This document shows positions 10,819 through 23,266 of a stretch of DNA of 64,000 nucleotides, one piece after another (positions within the stretch are counted from its first letter, which is position 1; every line of letters begins with the position of its first letter). The stretch is from a virus. The stretch lies in the IMG/VR virus record IMGVR_UViG_3300026534_000102, positions 32,001 to 96,000 of that record, one strand, 5' to 3'. The notes beneath the pieces were generated by a model that saw only the letters and a program-made list of their open reading frames with translations, searched no databases and was not told the DNA's origin. The position numbers were made by a program, and so were the translations under genes.

Positions 10819-11310
10819 CTACTCCATAATTTTGTTTCTAAGAATTTCATACACTTCACATAATACTCCATCACCACCATTAGATTTAAGAACAATGTCG
10901 GATAATGCTTTTATTTCGTATATAGCATCAGCTGGGCAAATTGAAATCTGTGCCATCTTAAATAAAGAGATATCTGAAAAACTACTACCTATATATAAAA
11001 CATTTTCTAATGTTACATTATATCTTCTAAGGGCAGCCAAAAATGCTTCTTTTTTTCCTTGCTCCGACCAAAAAAATGGTATATTTTTTCGGCGGCATAA
11101 GTGATAATTTATTCTATTATCAGACGATACGAAAATAAACTTATATCCACGTTTTTTTATCTCATTAATAGCTTCGAAGTCTTTAAAGTTATATGTCTTA
11201 AAAAGAGTATTTCCTAACTCATCAATAGGTGATGAGTGATTAGTTAAAATACCATCTATTTCACTTACGCAAATCTTAATATTATTCAACATGATTTGAT
11301 TATTTCCCAT
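10819..11310 (-). CDS. KdsC/YrbI-like HAD phosphatase family protein (catalytic motif degenerate)
   Basis: VSEIDGILT, FKTYNFKD, YIGSSFSDI, CPADA, GGDGVLCEV resemble KdsC and the CMP-sialic acid synthetase C-terminal domain. Confidence 0.8.
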   Translation of the reverse strand: MGNNQIMLNNIKICVSEIDGILTNHSSPIDELGNTLFKTYNFKDFEAINEIKKRGYKFIFVSSDNRINYHLCRRKNIPFFWSEQGKKEAFLAALRRYNVTLENVLYIGSSFSDISLFKMAQISICPADAIYEIKALSDIVLKSNGGDGVLCEVYEILRNKIME

Positions 11311-12427
11311 TTAAAAAATTATCCAATAACACTGTGATAAACCTGACTTTTTCTCCAGAAAGATTAGGGTGCATTGGTAAAGACAGTAAAGTTTTACTTA
11401 ACTCCTCAGCAACTGGAAACACCTGTTTATTATATTCTTTATAAGCAGTTTGTTTATGACACGGAATAGGATAATGCAAAGCAGCTTCTACCCCATTAGA
11501 TTTTAAATACCTTTGAAGACTATCTCTAATGTTTCTAGACTTACACTTTACTTCATACAAATGGTATACATTACTTACTTTAAATTTAGATCTAACTGTA
11601 TGTTGTCTATCTAAATTTTTAATATTATCTATGCCAGTATTATACAACGTAGCAAAAAATGTTCTGAAAAAATTCCAAGTAGATATCTCATTTAGACAAT
11701 AATACAAAAATAAAGCATTAATAGAGTCTAGTCTTGAATTAAAACCTACGTATTGATATTCATAGTGGGAATCTTTAACTCGGCCAACGTTTGCTAAGCT
11801 CTCTATTTTATCTGCGAGTTCTTTACTGTCAGTAATTATTGCCCCACCTTGTCCTAAACCACCTAGATTTTTCGTTGGGTAAAAAGAAAATGCACCAATA
11901 TCTCCAAAAGTTCCAACTTTTTGATTATTATAAACAGCACCAATAGCTTGAGCACAATCTTCTATAACTTTTAAGTTATATTTATTAGCAATCTCTAATA
12001 CTTTTTTCATATCTACTGGATTACCATATAAATGTACAGGAATAATTGCTTTAGTTTTATCAGTAATAGCTTCTTCTATTTTTTCACAATCTATATTATA
12101 AGTTTTAGGGTCAGCATCTACAAAAACAACTTTTGCGCGCGCGTGGGAAACAGCAAAAGCTGTAGCAATAAAAGTATTAGCAGGAACAATTACTTCGTCT
12201 CCTGGACCAATATCTAATGCAAGTAAAGATAATAAAAGAGCATCTGTTCCAGAACCAACTCCAACGCAATAATTAACATCATGAAATTCAGCAAACGCCT
12301 TTTGAAACGTATCAACCCAATAACCACCTACGAACGTACCTCGTTCTATACACGTATATATATCAGAAATAATTAATGGTGCTATATTTTCATATTGTTT
12401 TTTCAGATCTACAAACGGTATTGTCAT
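11300..12427 (-). CDS. DegT/DnrJ/EryC1/StrS PLP-dependent NDP-sugar aminotransferase (WbpE/GnnB/FdtB-like)
   Basis: IPFVDL, GSGTDAL, PANTFIAT, PVHLYG, IEDCAQA, SFYPTKNLG (PLP lysine), NSRLD, HYPIP, LSLPMHP. Confidence 0.95.
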   Translation of the reverse strand: MTIPFVDLKKQYENIAPLIISDIYTCIERGTFVGGYWVDTFQKAFAEFHDVNYCVGVGSGTDALLLSLLALDIGPGDEVIVPANTFIATAFAVSHARAKVVFVDADPKTYNIDCEKIEEAITDKTKAIIPVHLYGNPVDMKKVLEIANKYNLKVIEDCAQAIGAVYNNQKVGTFGDIGAFSFYPTKNLGGLGQGGAIITDSKELADKIESLANVGRVKDSHYEYQYVGFNSRLDSINALFLYYCLNEISTWNFFRTFFATLYNTGIDNIKNLDRQHTVRSKFKVSNVYHLYEVKCKSRNIRDSLQRYLKSNGVEAALHYPIPCHKQTAYKEYNKQVFPVAEELSKTLLSLPMHPNLSGEKVRFITVLLDNFLNGK

Positions 12428-12930
12428 TTATTACTTCCTTTCTTTTTTACTAACTTCACGGGAGTTCCGACATAAATACCTGGTTCAACTATATCATCTT
12501 TAACAAAAGAATTAGCACCAACTATGACATCATCACAAATTTTTGCTGAAGCAGAAATTTTAGTGCCCGCGCCAATAAAACAATTCTTTCCTATAATAGC
12601 CCCTATCTTTTTCTCTCTATCAGATTCGGCACCCAAAGTAATTACATTTGGACCTATAAAAGTGTTATTTCTTATCATAGCATAATCAGTTACAATAGTA
12701 CCATATTTGATAATAACATTATCTTCTATAACAGCATGGCTGCCTATTCTTATCCTACCTTGTATCAAACAACCATTTCCTATCATTACACCTGGTTCTA
12801 ACTCGCAATAACTACCCACACGAGTTCCTCTGCCAATAAAAACATCTTTCCAAATATGATTAAAATGACCGATCGAAACACCATTATCAATGCGATCTGA
12901 TTCTATAACGTTAAACTGTCCTATTTGCAT
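12424..12930 (-). CDS. Hexapeptide-repeat (left-handed beta-helix) acyltransferase
   Basis: Continuous [IV]GxxxxI hexapeptide repeats; ends IVGANSFV..DI..PGIYVGTP. Confidence 0.88.
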   Translation of the reverse strand: MQIGQFNVIESDRIDNGVSIGHFNHIWKDVFIGRGTRVGSYCELEPGVMIGNGCLIQGRIRIGSHAVIEDNVIIKYGTIVTDYAMIRNNTFIGPNVITLGAESDREKKIGAIIGKNCFIGAGTKISASAKICDDVIVGANSFVKDDIVEPGIYVGTPVKLVKKKGSNK

Positions 12931-21189: not shown

Positions 21190-21986
21190 TAATTATACTC
21201 CTCTTTCATACATCTTATCTTTGCCAAATCTTCTGCATATCCATAAATGTGTAAACCTTTACTTTCAACAATCATTTCCCCATCATCTACTCCTATTTCG
21301 CTGGCCATGAAAGATTTTAATTCTTGAATACCAGCAAGATTTGCGGGTAAACCTCCCCATAAATCCCAAGATCTAAAATAGACGAAAAAATGCAATTGAT
21401 TATCTTGAACACGTGTATCAATTCCTCTTAAACAAGGTGGGTCTTTCAATAAAATATCATCTGGCTTTGCAACCTGCAGCACCAATTGATTATTTCTATG
21501 CCCATGTTTTTTATATGTTTCTATAATATAATCTATTTGATTAACATACGGAGAAAAACCATCCCAATAAACGCCTCGATCATTATCTGTGTATAAAATA
21601 TTATCTGCTTCAAGTTCTCTAAATTCCATTATATCTTTACTTAATGTAAAGTGGGTTAGTCTTTCCCCATAAGTATAAGATTCTCCCGGTTCTTTTCTAT
21701 CTGTCATTATATATTCTATATAAGATCTATCATACCCTTCGCCACCATAAATATAAGCCTCCTCTACAGGCGCCGGTATGTTAAGATGTGGTGGAATCTC
21801 TGGAATTAAAGGTTTAATCCATGGCTTAGTAATATGTCCCGTAAAATAATCAAACTCTAATCGTGTCTGTCCTTCATAAGAACCCCGATCTATGGTTTCT
21901 TTACGACCATTTTCTAATAGTTGATAAACAGCTTGAAACCATAGGTCAGGCAATGTTATCGCATCTACTCTTATAATTTTCAACAT
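21189..21986 (-). CDS. Thymidylate synthase family protein (divergent/archaeal-like ThyA type)
   Basis: YTYGERL, NQID, DPPC (catalytic Cys), FRSWD...PAN (Asn indicates dUMP specificity), LHIY. Confidence 0.88.
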   Translation of the reverse strand: MLKIIRVDAITLPDLWFQAVYQLLENGRKETIDRGSYEGQTRLEFDYFTGHITKPWIKPLIPEIPPHLNIPAPVEEAYIYGGEGYDRSYIEYIMTDRKEPGESYTYGERLTHFTLSKDIMEFRELEADNILYTDNDRGVYWDGFSPYVNQIDYIIETYKKHGHRNNQLVLQVAKPDDILLKDPPCLRGIDTRVQDNQLHFFVYFRSWDLWGGLPANLAGIQELKSFMASEIGVDDGEMIVESKGLHIYGYAEDLAKIRCMKEEYN

Positions 21987-21988
21987 AT

Positions 21989-23266
21989 CTAAAATTCCTC
22001 TGTTTCAATAGACTTCTCTCCCTCAACAGGTGCTTTTTCCGATGCAGACGTGAGTTCATCATGTGCTTTATTAAAAACTTCTAACCATTTTGGAACAATG
22101 CTTTGTTGCCAATCCATTTTTGTAAGAACCCATTCATATGCTTTTTCTGCCTTCTTCAAAGCACCATCATAATCACCGTACACCGTCAACATTTTAGCAA
22201 CCATATCTTCCACATCAACCAAGGGACGTATAACCTCATTATCATGAGGCAATACAGTGAATAAACTAGAATTAGAGCCGCTATTAACAAGGTATCCTCG
22301 CTCATCAATAATATTTTCAGAAATAGCTGTATTATTGGGCATAATTACCGGAGTTTTAGTGGCCATGGCTTCAATCCAAGACAATCCCCAACCCTCCCCT
22401 AAACTAGTACTAATAACACAATCGCTAATATTATAGATCATATTAACAATTTGAATCGGGTAACCTTGATTGGGACCAAAATTCTCTGGAAAAATAACAT
22501 CATCATTAATATTAAAACCATAAGATTTACAGACTTCTGGCAAATGCCAGCCCTGATCTTGTCTAGCCATATGTAAGTACAACAATGATTCAGGTACATG
22601 TTTTCTAAACTCTGCAAAAGCTTGTATAGTTCTAGGTATATCTTTACGTTGCTGATTCCTATTAAGATTAGTAAAAATAAACCTATCACTATATTTACCA
22701 AAATATCTTTTTCTAAATTTTAATTTCTCATCATCATCCAAAGGGAAAAAATTAGTGGTATTAACTCCATGTGGGATAACAATAATATCCTTAGTCAAAT
22801 CTGGACAAGCTTTTTCTGCTTCTCGTTTACCATATTCAGAATACGCTACAGTAAAATCGGCAGCACTTACATTTTTAATCCATTGCTCTTTAGGAGCACC
22901 ATCAACTGGAAAATAACAAATACTTCTAAAAGGTTTAGAGTAGTTTGCTCTCAAATAGTCCATAAGCTCTGGAATAAAATCCATGATAAAAGAATCCTGC
23001 AGCAAGAATAAAATGTCAAAATCCATTCGAGGAATCATGTTGCAAATTTTTTTGCGGCCATACGGATCCCGCTCCGCATTAGTACCAGTTGGCCAAATTC
23101 TATAGGGAAAATTATGTGGATCTCCCCAATAATTTATACCAAGAATATCAATATCAAACCTACCAGTTCTATATAGTCCTTCAAAAATGTTACGACTAAC
23201 CGTTCCAAATCCTGTAGCACAGGTGGGTGAATCACAATATGCCAATACTTTAATCTTTTTGTCCAT
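21989..23266 (-). CDS. GT4-like (GT-B) glycosyltransferase
   Basis: DSPTCATGFG, IPHGV, NRNQQRKD, GEGWGLSWIEAMAT. Confidence 0.92.
   Translation of the reverse strand: MDKKIKVLAYCDSPTCATGFGTVSRNIFEGLYRTGRFDIDILGINYWGDPHNFPYRIWPTGTNAERDPYGRKKICNMIPRMDFDILFLLQDSFIMDFIPELMDYLRANYSKPFRSICYFPVDGAPKEQWIKNVSAADFTVAYSEYGKREAEKACPDLTKDIIVIPHGVNTTNFFPLDDDEKLKFRKRYFGKYSDRFIFTNLNRNQQRKDIPRTIQAFAEFRKHVPESLLYLHMARQDQGWHLPEVCKSYGFNINDDVIFPENFGPNQGYPIQIVNMIYNISDCVISTSLGEGWGLSWIEAMATKTPVIMPNNTAISENIIDERGYLVNSGSNSSLFTVLPHDNEVIRPLVDVEDMVAKMLTVYGDYDGALKKAEKAYEWVLTKMDWQQSIVPKWLEVFNKAHDELTSASEKAPVEGEKSIETEEF

Follow-up and report, generated by a model that had tools for sequence, protein, structure and literature searches.

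Virus-encoded glycan synthesis has been described in several groups of viruses. In the Mimivirus group, clade-specific glycogene clusters comprise 6-21 genes, some of which include genes of sulfate metabolism and one of which contains the gene for the glycosylated fibril protein (PMC9614988). Glycans on the capsid and tail tube are described for mycobacteriophages (Freeman et al. 2023, as cited in PMC12619734), and the 'capsular polysaccharide modification' clusters of the P-SSM2 type vary between related phages (Iyer et al. 2021, PMC7824862). Here we analysed a 64,000-nucleotide window of a 115-kb viral contig and found that the stretch at positions 10819-23266 represents one form of a glycan-synthesis island that is conserved in an uncultured jumbo-phage lineage, which may be of the Bacteroidota-infecting 'moraphage' type and whose genomes reach about 270-330 kb.

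The island consists of 14 translationally coupled ORFs on the minus strand, 13 of which are soluble sugar-building genes, the remaining one being a thymidylate synthase (TS). Based on Pfam and NCBIfam profile matches, the sugar genes encode two GT4 and three GT2 glycosyltransferases, an oxidoreductase, an aminotransferase, three hexapeptide acyltransferases, a methyltransferase, a sulfotransferase and a KdsC-like HAD protein. All enzyme classes named in a preliminary description of this DNA were recovered at their coordinates by this classification, and the tight coupling that it reported is borne out by spacings of -74 to +22 nt between neighbouring genes; it did not name the TS (21189-21986), and a LAGLIDADG intein interrupting the second GT4 was overlooked. 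One flank of the island carries PD-(D/E)XK nucleases, DnaJ, primase, DnaB, RecA and the sliding clamp, and the opposite flank carries the clamp loader, family-A DNA polymerase, dUTPase and RNR. The cluster, described earlier as inserted in the replication gene run, does have replication genes on both sides, but this location is a conserved feature of the lineage and not a recent insertion.

Among about 50 related viral contigs, the order GT4-[TS or ThyX]-GT4' is kept at the same replication-module site, and a HAD homologue closes the island wherever its far end was sampled, adjoining the clamp loader in two relatives (G001 and G002) and ending the cassette in two others (L030/G003 and L041). 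Between GT4' and the HAD gene lies a sugar-gene cassette that differs between phages and spans 0 to about 20 kb, the smallest island seen being GT4-GT4'-HAD in L041. Among 150 cassette ORFs from 17 relatives, Pfam matches included GT2 (17), methyltransferases (~15), hexapeptide proteins (9), GT4 (~9), sulfotransferases (7), UDP-GlcNAc 2-epimerases (6), GT9-like proteins (6) and GT17 (4), as well as NDP-sugar epimerases/dehydratases. The frame is conserved and the cassette is variable.

The conserved 5' member of the island is a GT4 of 425 aa (21989-23266, minus strand) that matches Pfam Glycos_transf_1 (E 2e-11), PF20706 and phrog_2170 (E 1e-52). Its relatives were found in 52 viral loci, mostly with 59-79% identity, and its best 120 database homologues (64-84% identity) are all located on contigs of at most 334 kb; judging from these sequences, the enzyme looks lineage-specific. 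The best PDB fold match (AF2 model, pLDDT 86.5) is chlorovirus NY-2A B736L (E 2e-21), followed by BshA, MshA and SPS. The second GT4 (GT4') is encoded by a 746-aa ORF (18949-21189, minus strand; phrog_2170 E 2e-22; Pfam LAGLIDADG_3 and Intein_splicing), which comprises a 372-aa extein and a 374-aa LAGLIDADG intein (residues 310-683; 19141-20262, minus strand; LAGLIDADG_3 E 1e-11). The intein bounds, set by alignment with intein-free homologues of 371-384 aa, show Cys1 (CMSLESLV...), a C-terminal Asn and a +1 Ser. With the first GT4 the extein shares 24% identity (E 3e-9), and GT4' homologues come after GT4 in nearly all related loci.

A GT4 paired with a HAD phosphatase forms the classic 'X-phosphate synthase/phosphatase' arrangement, which counts for a reading in which the GT4 pair and the HAD-like protein would glycosylate a metabolite or an internal or non-structural protein and the cassette would elaborate the product into a secondary metabolite or effector. 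The closest cellular folds of the conserved GT4 are those of small-molecule GT4s (GlgM in addition to BshA, MshA and SPS), its best NCBIfam match is BshA, and secondary-metabolite sugar clusters have been proposed for cyanophages (Iyer et al., PMC7824862). The KdsC/KDN-9-P-phosphatase-like HAD protein reported earlier is indeed present (10819-11310, minus strand; TIGR01670 E 1e-15), but its catalytic Asp, the nucleophile, is missing: motif I is S-E-I-D-G where 3E81 has T-D-I-D-G, and in motif IV G-S-S-F-S-D takes the place of G-D-D-L-N-D. Both changes are common to all five family homologues aligned, so the synthase/phosphatase logic does not apply. Moreover, 5 to more than 15 glycosyltransferases per island are excessive for a metabolite and no aglycone-building genes were seen, and we consider such a product quite improbable. 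As regards folds in general, the GT-B/GT4 architecture says little about the acceptor, and the next-best fold matches (BshA, MshA and SPS) use small molecules, points to be set against virion proteins as acceptors.

The gene located exactly between both GT4s encodes a 265-aa TS of the archaeal/Desulfobacterota type (21189-21986, minus strand; TIGR03283 E 3e-28). By analogy with T4, RB69 and the metavirome clusters of Pyle et al., a TS homologue in this position might produce a hydroxylated pyrimidine nucleotide, on which the glycosyltransferases would build an oligosaccharide in phage DNA. Consistent with this, the protein has Asn at N177, and at the position of E. coli L143 it shares a hydroxymethylase-like Asp with SPO1 gp29, ViI, phiW-14 and T4 gp42, by a diagnostic taken from PMC13326640. 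In addition, the island lies among replication genes, GT-B matches often adjoin ThyS, and GT-B enzymes known to act on DNA are similar to BshA and MshA and may be paired with HAD proteins (bioRxiv 10.1101/2023.12.21.572611). However, TS orthologues with ~59-66% identity are the sole PF00303 match, with no ThyX, in five Desulfobacterota genomes (3.4-6.0 Mb), where they share with the phage protein identical active-site motifs (DPPC...FRSWDLW.G.PANLA), and in relatives of the phage ThyX takes the TS slot between the GT4s, with one TS-type gene per genome. Since the orthologues are the only TS detected in these five genomes and ThyX replaces TS in the relatives, the enzyme makes dTMP: it is a genuine thymidylate synthase that sits within the island but outside the glycan pathway. 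Furthermore, the complete relative G001 keeps both GT4s with no TS-like gene at all, and with Asp at D169 the TS is not a 5-hydroxy-dCMP synthase. The dUTPase in the flank fits an ordinary supply of dTTP, the two GT4s have acidic pI values (5.2 and 5.5), and the top fold matches listed for the GT4 do not include T4 alpha/beta-GT. The analysis found nothing that would supply a hydroxylated base, although the lack of Tet_JBP matches is weak evidence, as the control was silent. DNA, which the preliminary description had kept as a second possible target, is thus disfavoured by the genuine TS, the ThyX swap and the failure to find any other hydroxylated-base enzyme, and we regard its glycosylation as very unlikely.

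The cassette proper, all on the minus strand, begins after GT4' with a 252-aa sulfotransferase (18191-18949; Sulfotransfer_3 E 1e-14, Sulfotransfer_1 E 6e-12) bearing an N-terminal PAPS-loop-like motif RSGTT, and a 178-aa SAM-dependent methyltransferase (17668-18204; Methyltransf_11 E 4e-11), a homologue of which follows GT4' in many relatives. The three GT2 enzymes match Glycos_transf_2 and are located at 17022-17675 (217 aa, E 3e-12; phrog_13126 E 6e-10), 15174-16013 (279 aa, E 4e-8) and 13549-14532 (327 aa, E 4e-13, N-terminal part only). The oxidoreductase (15998-17095; GFO_IDH_MocA E 8e-26) is of the GnnA/WbpB type and resembles UDP-GlcNAc 3-dehydrogenase (NF040723, E 4e-48, under the curated cut-off); its true start is probably downstream of the 74-nt overlap, because the Pfam match begins at residue 30. 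Among the hexapeptide acyltransferases, the 211-aa protein at 14535-15170 is of the LpxA-like left-handed beta-helix type (TIGR01852 E 1.5e-34, under the cut-off; PDB LpxA chains E 2e-20, beta-helix part only), and those at 12921-13574 (217 aa; Hexapep E 6e-30) and 12424-12930 (168 aa; Hexapep E 3e-23) are of the NeuD/PglB/VioB type (E 3e-22 and 4e-21, respectively). The 375-aa DegT-family aminotransferase (11300-12427; DegT_DnrJ_EryC1 E 4e-112) has C3 aminotransferases as its named PDB relatives, QdtB (E 2e-95) and WbpE (E 3e-70). The sugar chemistry predicted from these matches would start from host UDP-GlcNAc, oxidised at C3 by the GnnA/WbpB-like dehydrogenase, transaminated by the QdtB/WbpE-like aminotransferase and N-acylated by the beta-helix acyltransferases to a UDP-2,3-diamino-2,3-dideoxyhexose derivative. 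The three GT2 and the two retaining, paralogous GT4 enzymes would then build an oligosaccharide, followed by O/N-acylation, methylation and sulfation, and the glycan would be attached to at least one virion protein of the phage, before the particle is assembled or while assembly proceeds.

Kyte-Doolittle prediction for all ORFs of the 115-kb contig revealed none with more than one transmembrane (TM) segment, and no ORF of G001 (268.8 kb, rated 100% complete) has more than two, those with two being 69-204 aa long; when 253 kb of bacterial DNA served as a positive control, the same method detected proteins with 5-10 TM segments. The initiating transferase Bac_transf was not found in five related records, with control genomes positive. 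The sugar pathway is entirely soluble, which agrees with the earlier observations that the cluster encodes no polytopic membrane protein and that genes for export, polymerisation and initiation are absent, here extended to a complete genome of the lineage. We propose a cytoplasmic pathway because both the contig and the complete relative lack an initiating enzyme, flippase, polymerase, ABC exporter and oligosaccharyltransferase. The step from missing export genes to a cytoplasmic target, taken in the preliminary description, stands as far as the absence is concerned, but leaves a loophole, as an initiating transferase and exporters of the host could serve.

Soluble GT2 and GT4 enzymes normally act on lipid-linked acceptors. 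In the main rival explanation, the phage glycosyltransferases and sugar-nucleotide enzymes would act on host lipid-linked intermediates at the inner membrane face, and the host would supply the initiating transferase, the flippase or ABC exporter and the ligase needed to complete an altered O-antigen or capsule that blocks superinfection or the sticking of progeny to debris. The missing membrane genes do not exclude such remodelling, as O-antigen and capsule GT2 and GT4 enzymes are typically soluble or peripheral; one acyltransferase is LpxA-like, the three amino-sugar enzymes are similar to those of the WbpB/WbpE/WbpD and GnnA/GnnB LPS pathways, and this is how clusters of several sugar genes in P-SSM2 and other jumbo phages have been read (PMC7824862). 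However, host flippases, polymerases and ligases are usually somewhat specific for the repeat unit, with which a cassette differing completely between close relatives must stay compatible. In addition, close homologues of the conserved GT4 among the top 120 matches occur on phage-sized contigs only, more distant ones adjoin capsid genes in the small genomes of lytic-type phages, and the surroundings of the island showed no genes for lysogeny or pseudolysogeny. Taken with these points, a host-surface target appears rather unlikely.

Cytoplasmic glycosylation of virion proteins is the best reading of the island, with a probability of roughly 0.45. A virion-protein target, as suggested earlier, is the best-supported option given the capsid-linked GT4 homologues and the chlorovirus fold match, but no glycosylated acceptor protein or glycosylation site was identified. 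In three of the five cultured phages examined (Pontimonas phage phiPsal1, with the order MCP-GT4-MTase-GT2-neck, Microcystis phage Mae-JY09 and Synechococcus phage S-CBS4), a more distant homologue of the conserved GT4 adjoins the gene for the major capsid protein, lies close to it or belongs to the head module; in S-EIVl, another of the five, the homologue is located beside a primase. Only the GT4 is detectably shared between these small-phage capsid modules and the island, the methyltransferase match being generic and the GT2s giving no match. This context points to one or more virion proteins as the likeliest acceptor, in which case the surface glycan would give every phage strain a 'serotype' of its own, which would serve shielding, stability or adsorption.

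The island adjoins a 531-aa protein with DUF2341 and ConA-like lectin domains (9220-10815, minus strand; DUF2341 E 2e-18), a paralogue of the fibre-like proteins at 36612-44301, which was counted for virion proteins as acceptors. DUF2341 is also present in upstream proteins of 727 and 694 aa, and in the Atlas the 531-aa protein has DUF2341/LamG proteins as structural neighbours (TM up to 0.48), with Reg_prop propellers as weaker ones. This neighbour is optional, following the HAD gene in L041 and missing from G001. The location of the island in the replication module, and not among structural genes, counts against the same acceptors, and implies that the island is probably expressed with DNA-metabolism genes, like T4-type DNA glucosyltransferases. 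Among 17 large or structural-region ORFs queried for capsid and tail genes, none had a named PHROG match, and one matched weakly a family of unknown function. The motif T-[TS]-x-S-G is enriched and was considered as a glycosylation sequon, but is mostly a Reg_prop-type beta-propeller blade signature.

Compared with described systems, the island shares with the fibril-glycosylation clusters of the Mimivirus group and the capsid glycosylation of chloroviruses the virus-encoded soluble sugar-nucleotide enzymes, several glycosyltransferases, methyl and other decorating transferases, gene content that varies between related viruses, and, through its GT4, the best fold match. It differs in belonging to a tailed bacteriophage, in forming an operon-like series of translationally coupled genes that is embedded in the replication module and bounded by a pair of conserved GT4s and a pseudo-HAD, and in being known from genes alone. 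As in the O-glycosylation of actinobacteriophage and mycobacteriophage virions summarised in PMC12619734, phage glycosyltransferases occur without membrane machinery, and phiPsal1, with an actinobacterial host, has a GT4 homologue, a GT2 and a methyltransferase beside its capsid gene. The O-glycosylation systems comprise 2-4 genes adjoining structural genes. The island is larger, its 13 sugar genes (~25 at most in relatives) encoding an amino-sugar pathway and a sulfotransferase among other enzymes, and it is remote from any capsid gene that could be identified. The P-SSM2-type clusters are likewise large and polymorphic, combine NDP-sugar enzymes with several glycosyltransferase families in jumbo phages and are known from genes alone; they are interpreted as acting on host surface polysaccharide, whereas our lineage has a complete member lacking export and initiating genes and a conserved lineage-specific GT4 frame. 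DNA hypermodification clusters (T4 alpha/beta-GT; RB69/DLP3 5hoC arabinosylation; 5mYOX/ThyS-GT) also place a GT-B beside a TS-family gene within replication genes and have a HAD-like partner, but their defining hydroxylated-base enzyme is missing here, and the TS is a dTMP synthase interchangeable with ThyX. Like WbpB/WbpE/WbpD and GnnA/GnnB, which form 2,3-diamino-2,3-dideoxy sugars, the island combines a 3-dehydrogenase, a C3 aminotransferase and a beta-helix N-acyltransferase with a predicted UDP-GlcNAc-type substrate; its scores are all under the equivalog cut-offs, the predicted substrate is GlcNAc or GlcNAcA, and it has three acyltransferases instead of one. The island is a variant of the known viral glycogene clusters, with a conserved GT4 frame and a variable cassette.

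The IMG/VR viral contig from which the window derives (as its bases 32001–96000) belongs to an uncultured phage and is 115,311 bp long with a CheckV completeness of about 44%, and the window has a GC content of about 33% and carries all of its genes on the minus strand. We classified the gene calls of the sugar-gene island at 10819–23266 with Pfam, PHROGs and NCBIfam and found 14 ORFs with intergenic spacing of −74 to +22 nt. In transcription order, the island opens with a glycosyltransferase of the GT4 family (hereafter GT4; 21989–23266, minus strand), a thymidylate synthase (TS) family protein (21189–21986, minus strand) and a second, intein-containing GT4 (GT4′; 18949–21189, minus strand), so that the TS-family gene lies between both GT4s. 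These are followed by a sulfotransferase, a SAM methyltransferase, a GT2 glycosyltransferase, a GFO/IDH/MocA oxidoreductase and another GT2, and then by an LpxA-like beta-helix acyltransferase, a further GT2, two NeuD/PglB-type hexapeptide acyltransferases, a DegT aminotransferase and a KdsC-like HAD protein. The oxidoreductase ORF (15998–17095, minus strand) matches Pfam from residue 30 and overlaps the upstream GT2 gene (17022–17675) by 74 nt; its true start codon is probably further downstream than called. The preliminary description had all of these enzyme classes right, leaving out the TS gene and the intein. As in surface polysaccharide loci, sugar-nucleotide modifying enzymes and several glycosyltransferases are combined in one operon. 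The transcriptionally upstream flank encodes a sliding clamp, RecA, DnaB, a Toprim primase, a radical-SAM protein, DnaJ and two PD-(D/E)XK nucleases, and the downstream flank a DUF2341 protein, the clamp loader, a family-A DNA polymerase with two inteins, a dUTPase and RNR. The radical-SAM protein (247 aa; 25958–26701, minus strand) is conserved across the lineage as part of the replication gene run.

Relatives of GT4 were found on 52 viral contigs, most with 59–79% identity and some on contigs of 175–269 kb. These genomes share a fixed synteny backbone, namely DnaB, primase, DnaJ, PD-(D/E)XK, GT4, a slot of varying content and GT4′, followed by a phage-specific gene run, the cassette. The cluster, first described as inserted in the replication genes, is instead a feature of the lineage. 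GT4 itself appears to be a lineage-specific enzyme, since its best 120 homologs in the database (64–84% identity) are all located on contigs of no more than 334 kb. By a Pfam tally, 150 cassette ORFs from 17 relatives are mostly sugar enzymes of many families, including GT2, GT4, GT9-like, GT17 and GT32-like glycosyltransferases, methyltransferases, hexapeptide acyltransferases, sulfotransferases, UDP-GlcNAc 2-epimerases and NDP-sugar epimerases/dehydratases. The island extends over approximately 20 kb in G001, a complete 268.8-kb relative, and is reduced to GT4, GT4′ and the HAD gene in L041, where a DUF2341 protein follows. Six relatives encode a protein of around 530 aa that combines zinc ribbons with Vsr/REase-like and Mom-like (PF25680) domains, its gene lying ahead of the GT4 pair, between its members or behind them (L015:14056–15654, L013:8365–9966, L009:14859–16451, L022:8363–9961, L046:16743–18341 and L054:12973–14565); its domains were assigned by Pfam on L015 and L013, and the other four ORFs were grouped by size and position. 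None is present on the source contig. The gene could be mobile and homing-endonuclease-like; alternatively, the protein could modify DNA.

The far end of the island, sampled in few relatives, is occupied by the HAD gene wherever it was sampled. Its homolog adjoins the clamp loader and DNA polymerase in G001 and in a second relative, G002, and also terminates the cassette in L030/G003 and L041. Motif I of this protein reads S-E-I-D-G versus the expected D-x-D-G, the nucleophile Asp being replaced by Glu, and motif IV reads G-S-S-F-S-D versus G-D-D-L-N-D, with loss of the first Asp. Both changes, which depart from the KdsC and KDN-9-P phosphatases, occur in all five family homologs (10819–11310, minus strand, in the window; L030:20498–20998, L041:12562–13053, L122:10213–10731 and L124:16242–16742). 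Thus, the KdsC-like protein is probably a pseudo-phosphatase and not an active phosphatase, and its conservation at the island end leads us to speculate that it serves as an adaptor or binding module.

The GT4′ intein comprises residues 310–683 of the 746-aa ORF (19141–20262 in the window) and shows Cys1, a terminal Asn, Ser at position +1 and a LAGLIDADG_3 domain (E 1e-11), the penultimate residue being Ser and not His. As expected for a class 1 intein in an intact host protein, the extein can be aligned over its full length with homologs that lack the intein; this 372-aa extein is a distant paralog of the first GT4 (24% identity, E 3e-9). As called from ORF length, one or two inteins are present in 8 of 45 GT4 and 9 of 38 GT4′ homologs, with long GT4′ forms (1093–1198 aa) in L046, L047, L054 and L009 and long GT4 forms (811–1001 aa) in L041, L045, L046, L054 and others; on the basis of this length, some homologs apparently carry two. 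To our knowledge, a glycosyltransferase is an unusual intein host. Recurrent intein invasion across the lineage points to strong conservation of the GT4 genes. Elsewhere in the window, the family-A polymerase ORF (1487 aa; 3649–8112, minus strand) contains two LAGLIDADG/intein-splicing regions; its homologs have 1064–1076 aa in G003 and G002 and 637 aa in G001, where a 557-aa ORF with no match to the genes of this phage follows.

The gene content of the cassette allows a tentative reconstruction of the sugar chemistry. The best family for the oxidoreductase is UDP-GlcNAc 3-dehydrogenase (NF040723, E 4e-48), at 164 bits versus a cut-off of 450. Among characterized proteins of solved structure, the DegT aminotransferase is closest to QdtB (E 2e-95) and WbpE (E 3e-70), both C3 aminotransferases, from which its C3 regiochemistry is inferred; a PLP-dependent C3 aminotransferase, here recognized by homology, is also characteristic of the WbpB/E/D and GnnA/B pathways. 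Because neither a nucleotidyltransferase nor a 4,6-dehydratase was found among the island genes, host UDP-GlcNAc is the most likely starting compound, which the dehydrogenase, the C3 aminotransferase and the three beta-helix acyltransferases of the island would convert to a 2,3-diamino-2,3-dideoxyhexose derivative. The five glycosyltransferases, together with the methyltransferase and the sulfotransferase, which has a PAPS-loop-like RSGTT motif, imply a decorated hetero-oligosaccharide as the predicted product. Remodelling of lipid A (GlcN3N) by the LpxA-like acyltransferase and GnnA/GnnB-like enzymes was judged unlikely, since the acyltransferase matches the beta-helix part of LpxA only and the other ten sugar genes do not fit this role.

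The preliminary description had reported no export or initiation genes, and this absence is confirmed across one entire genome of the lineage. A Kyte-Doolittle scan of the whole 115-kb contig revealed no ORF with more than one transmembrane (TM) segment. As this contig is incomplete, we also scanned G001 (268,764 bp, CheckV completeness 100%, stitched together), in which none of the 329 ORFs has more than two TM segments and those with two are 69–204 aa in size; as a positive control, proteins with 5–10 TM segments were recovered in 253 kb of bacterial DNA. Accordingly, neither the contig nor G001 has a candidate with more than two TM segments for a flippase, polymerase, ABC permease or oligosaccharyltransferase/ligase, nor a polytopic candidate for a WecA-type initiating enzyme. 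Monotopic initiating transferases of the PglC type are invisible to such a scan and were sought separately with the Bac_transf family, which gave no match in five records (G000–G004) and was positive in ten control genomes. Soluble virus-encoded glycosyltransferases free of membrane machinery are what cytoplasmic glycosylation of virion proteins calls for. They are also compatible with the main rival explanation, in which the phage enzymes remodel host surface glycans by using the lipid carriers and exporters of the host, the interpretation published for sugar clusters of jumbo phages (PMC7824862). However, cassette content turns over completely between close relatives and the GT4 frame is restricted to phages, and we regard the host-surface explanation as unlikely.

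A TS-family gene between glycosyltransferases among replication genes is a known signature of pre-replicative DNA hypermodification (PMC13326640; bioRxiv 10.1101/2023.12.21.572611), and DNA was the alternative target in the preliminary description; in that case, the glycosyltransferases would modify a hydroxylated base in phage DNA. According to a published heuristic (PMC13326640), a hydrophobic residue at the position of E. coli L143 indicates a methyl product and Asp/Glu a hydroxymethylase. The phage TS retains the catalytic Cys, Asn at N177 and Asp at D169 and has Asp in place of L143, thus resembling a dUMP hydroxymethylase. In a reference alignment, this motif, which is conserved in 17 homologs, is like those of SPO1 gp29, ViI, phiW-14 and T4 gp42 and unlike that of T4 td; D169 is not the Asn diagnostic of 5-hydroxy-dCMP synthase. 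However, the protein (21189–21986, minus strand; loci L075–L115) belongs to an archaeal-type (TIGR03283-like) clade of a large family (4189 matches) that is also found on bacterial chromosomes. In five Desulfobacterota genomes (3.4–6.0 Mb), its ortholog is the sole PF00303 match and ThyX, the alternative TS type, is absent. These orthologs (62–66% identity) share the D-P-P-C ... FRSWDLW.G.PANLA motifs with the phage protein and, being the only TS found in a free-living cell, must make dTMP. We therefore filed the gene as a TS on grounds of functional necessity, and the Asp/Glu rule for L143 fails for the archaeal/Desulfobacterota-type clade. Identity of 59–66% to Desulfobacterota enzymes suggests that the phage gained the gene horizontally.

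The distribution of the gene among relatives also speaks against the DNA route. No TS-like gene was found in G001–G005, although both GT4s are conserved there, so that the glycosyltransferases are not co-inherited with a putative base-modifying enzyme. Instead, the slot between the GT4s is occupied by ThyX in G001, G003 and G004 (E 1e-61 to 1e-67) and by a weak ThyX-like ORF in G002. With one TS-type gene per genome, the lineage matches the TS/ThyX anticorrelation described among jumbo phages (PMC7824862). The slot also hosts freestanding LAGLIDADG genes, and one TS homolog carries an intein right before the catalytic Cys, suggesting that the TS genes are mobile cargo instead of pathway members. 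The intein-bearing homolog, on an unrelated viral contig (L005:4277–6268, plus strand), is interrupted by roughly 400 aa bearing the hallmarks of an intein (DPP|C...HN|C). An enzyme making a hydroxylated pyrimidine, such as a dNMP hydroxymethylase, a 5-hydroxy-dCMP synthase or a TET/JBP dioxygenase, defines DNA hypermodification of both the pre-replicative ThyS and the post-replicative 5mYOX type; none was found, and a dUTPase is encoded downstream of the island. A Tet_JBP (TET/JBP dioxygenase) search gave no match in five records and was uninformative, the control genomes being likewise silent. Both GT4s are acidic (pI 5.2 and 5.5), and a T4-type glycosyltransferase is absent among the listed top fold matches of GT4. 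Given the missing source of a hydroxylated base, the acidic GT4s and the lack of a T4-type fold match, DNA glycosylation is the least probable of the explanations considered and is highly improbable; glycosylation of 5-hmdU in particular was rejected, with the same TS family serving as sole TS in five bacterial genomes and ThyX in the slot of relatives. More generally, a glycosyltransferase beside a TS-family gene amid replication genes is insufficient for calling DNA hypermodification, and the L143 rule should be treated as unreliable for this TS clade.

Glycosylation of virion proteins in the cytoplasm is the explanation we favor, at a probability of roughly 45%; the soluble pathway and the virion-protein target proposed initially are thereby retained, and the DNA target is not. 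In Pontimonas phage phiPsal1, a distant GT4 homolog directly follows the major capsid gene (MCP-GT4-methyltransferase-GT2-neck); others lie one ORF past the capsid gene in Microcystis phage Mae-JY09 and between portal and protease, together with a glycosyltransferase and a methyltransferase, in Synechococcus phage S-CBS4. In Tetrasphaera phage TJE1, the homolog is accompanied by sugar-nucleotide genes and located upstream of those for terminase, and that of S-EIVl adjoins a primase gene. Thus, homologs occupy head modules in three of the five cultured phages examined, whereas the island of this lineage is part of the replication module. GT4 alone is shared with the capsid-linked modules of these small phages, the island methyltransferase and GT2 comparison yielding a generic methyltransferase match only. 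The AF2 model of GT4 (pLDDT 86.5) has chlorovirus B736L as its best structural match. The next-best fold matches are GT4s that act on small molecules, as would be expected if the acceptor were a small molecule or another compound, an explanation that we consider quite improbable; part of the probability is assigned to none of the four acceptor classes. The island also adjoins a lectin-domain (DUF2341/ConA-like) paralog of the upstream fiber-like proteins.

A T-[TS]-x-S-G motif has 27 occurrences versus 2.0 ± 1.4 expected and is enriched in G001 as well; TTxSG is the strongest gapped four-residue pattern in the proteome (19 versus 0.97 expected). The motif occurs in strand-turn contexts and in the apparently homologous N-termini of two large proteins, and the protein richest in it is a Reg_prop/PorZ-type beta-propeller. 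We therefore rejected it as an O-glycosylation sequon: it is a strand-turn signature of propeller blades, and its enrichment provides no evidence for glycosylation. The fiber-like proteins in which TTxSG marks Reg_prop/PorZ-N-type propeller blades are encoded at 35844–47334 and 9220–10815 in the window (minus strand) and at 15209–18754 of the contig. Three of the fiber-like proteins contain DUF2341, one of them also a LamG lectin domain. The fiber-like proteins probably bind glycans as receptor-binding proteins, as would be in keeping with a host among the Bacteroidota. Among 17 large or structural-region ORFs (up to 1793 aa) queried from 33392–63912 of the window and 96146–115311 of the contig, the neighboring 2998-aa ORF being left out, none had a named PHROG match, the single hit being a weak one to a functionally uncharacterized family. 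Sequence profiles leave the virion module of this lineage essentially without annotation and its capsid, tail and fiber genes without names.

Viral glycosylation clusters are already known, as are sugar clusters in jumbo phages, and a 2025 paper on freshwater 'moraphages', which may be the same lineage, lists four core glycosyltransferase orthogroups and DnaJ without analysis; our literature search found no paper on this island. What appears to be new is the architecture of GT4, TS/ThyX slot, GT4′, hypervariable cassette and pseudo-HAD, the finding, in a complete genome, that it does without membrane machinery, the presence of inteins within the glycosyltransferases and the exclusion of the DNA route. 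If the glycan ends on the virion, the lineage would have the most elaborate self-encoded glycosylation in a tailed phage. The conserved frame with its swappable cassette predicts strain-specific surface glycans, and the two-glycosyltransferase core is testable in vitro. More tentatively, the island may be a viral counterpart of an O-antigen locus, in which two lineage-specific GT4s would start a cytoplasmic virion-protein glycan, perhaps with the pseudo-phosphatase as an adaptor, and each strain of a widespread jumbo-phage lineage would owe a distinct 'serotype' of methylated and sulfated diamino sugars to a freely exchangeable cassette (0 to about 25 genes). As in bacteria, the glycan serotypes of phage particles would in that case be diverse and under diversifying selection. 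As further evidence for virion proteins as acceptors, the island can be likened to the glycosylation of mycobacteriophages, whose capsids and tail tubes carry glycans according to work cited in PMC12619734. Its architecture parallels that of Mimivirus, in which clade-specific glycogene clusters decorate the fibrils (PMC9614988).
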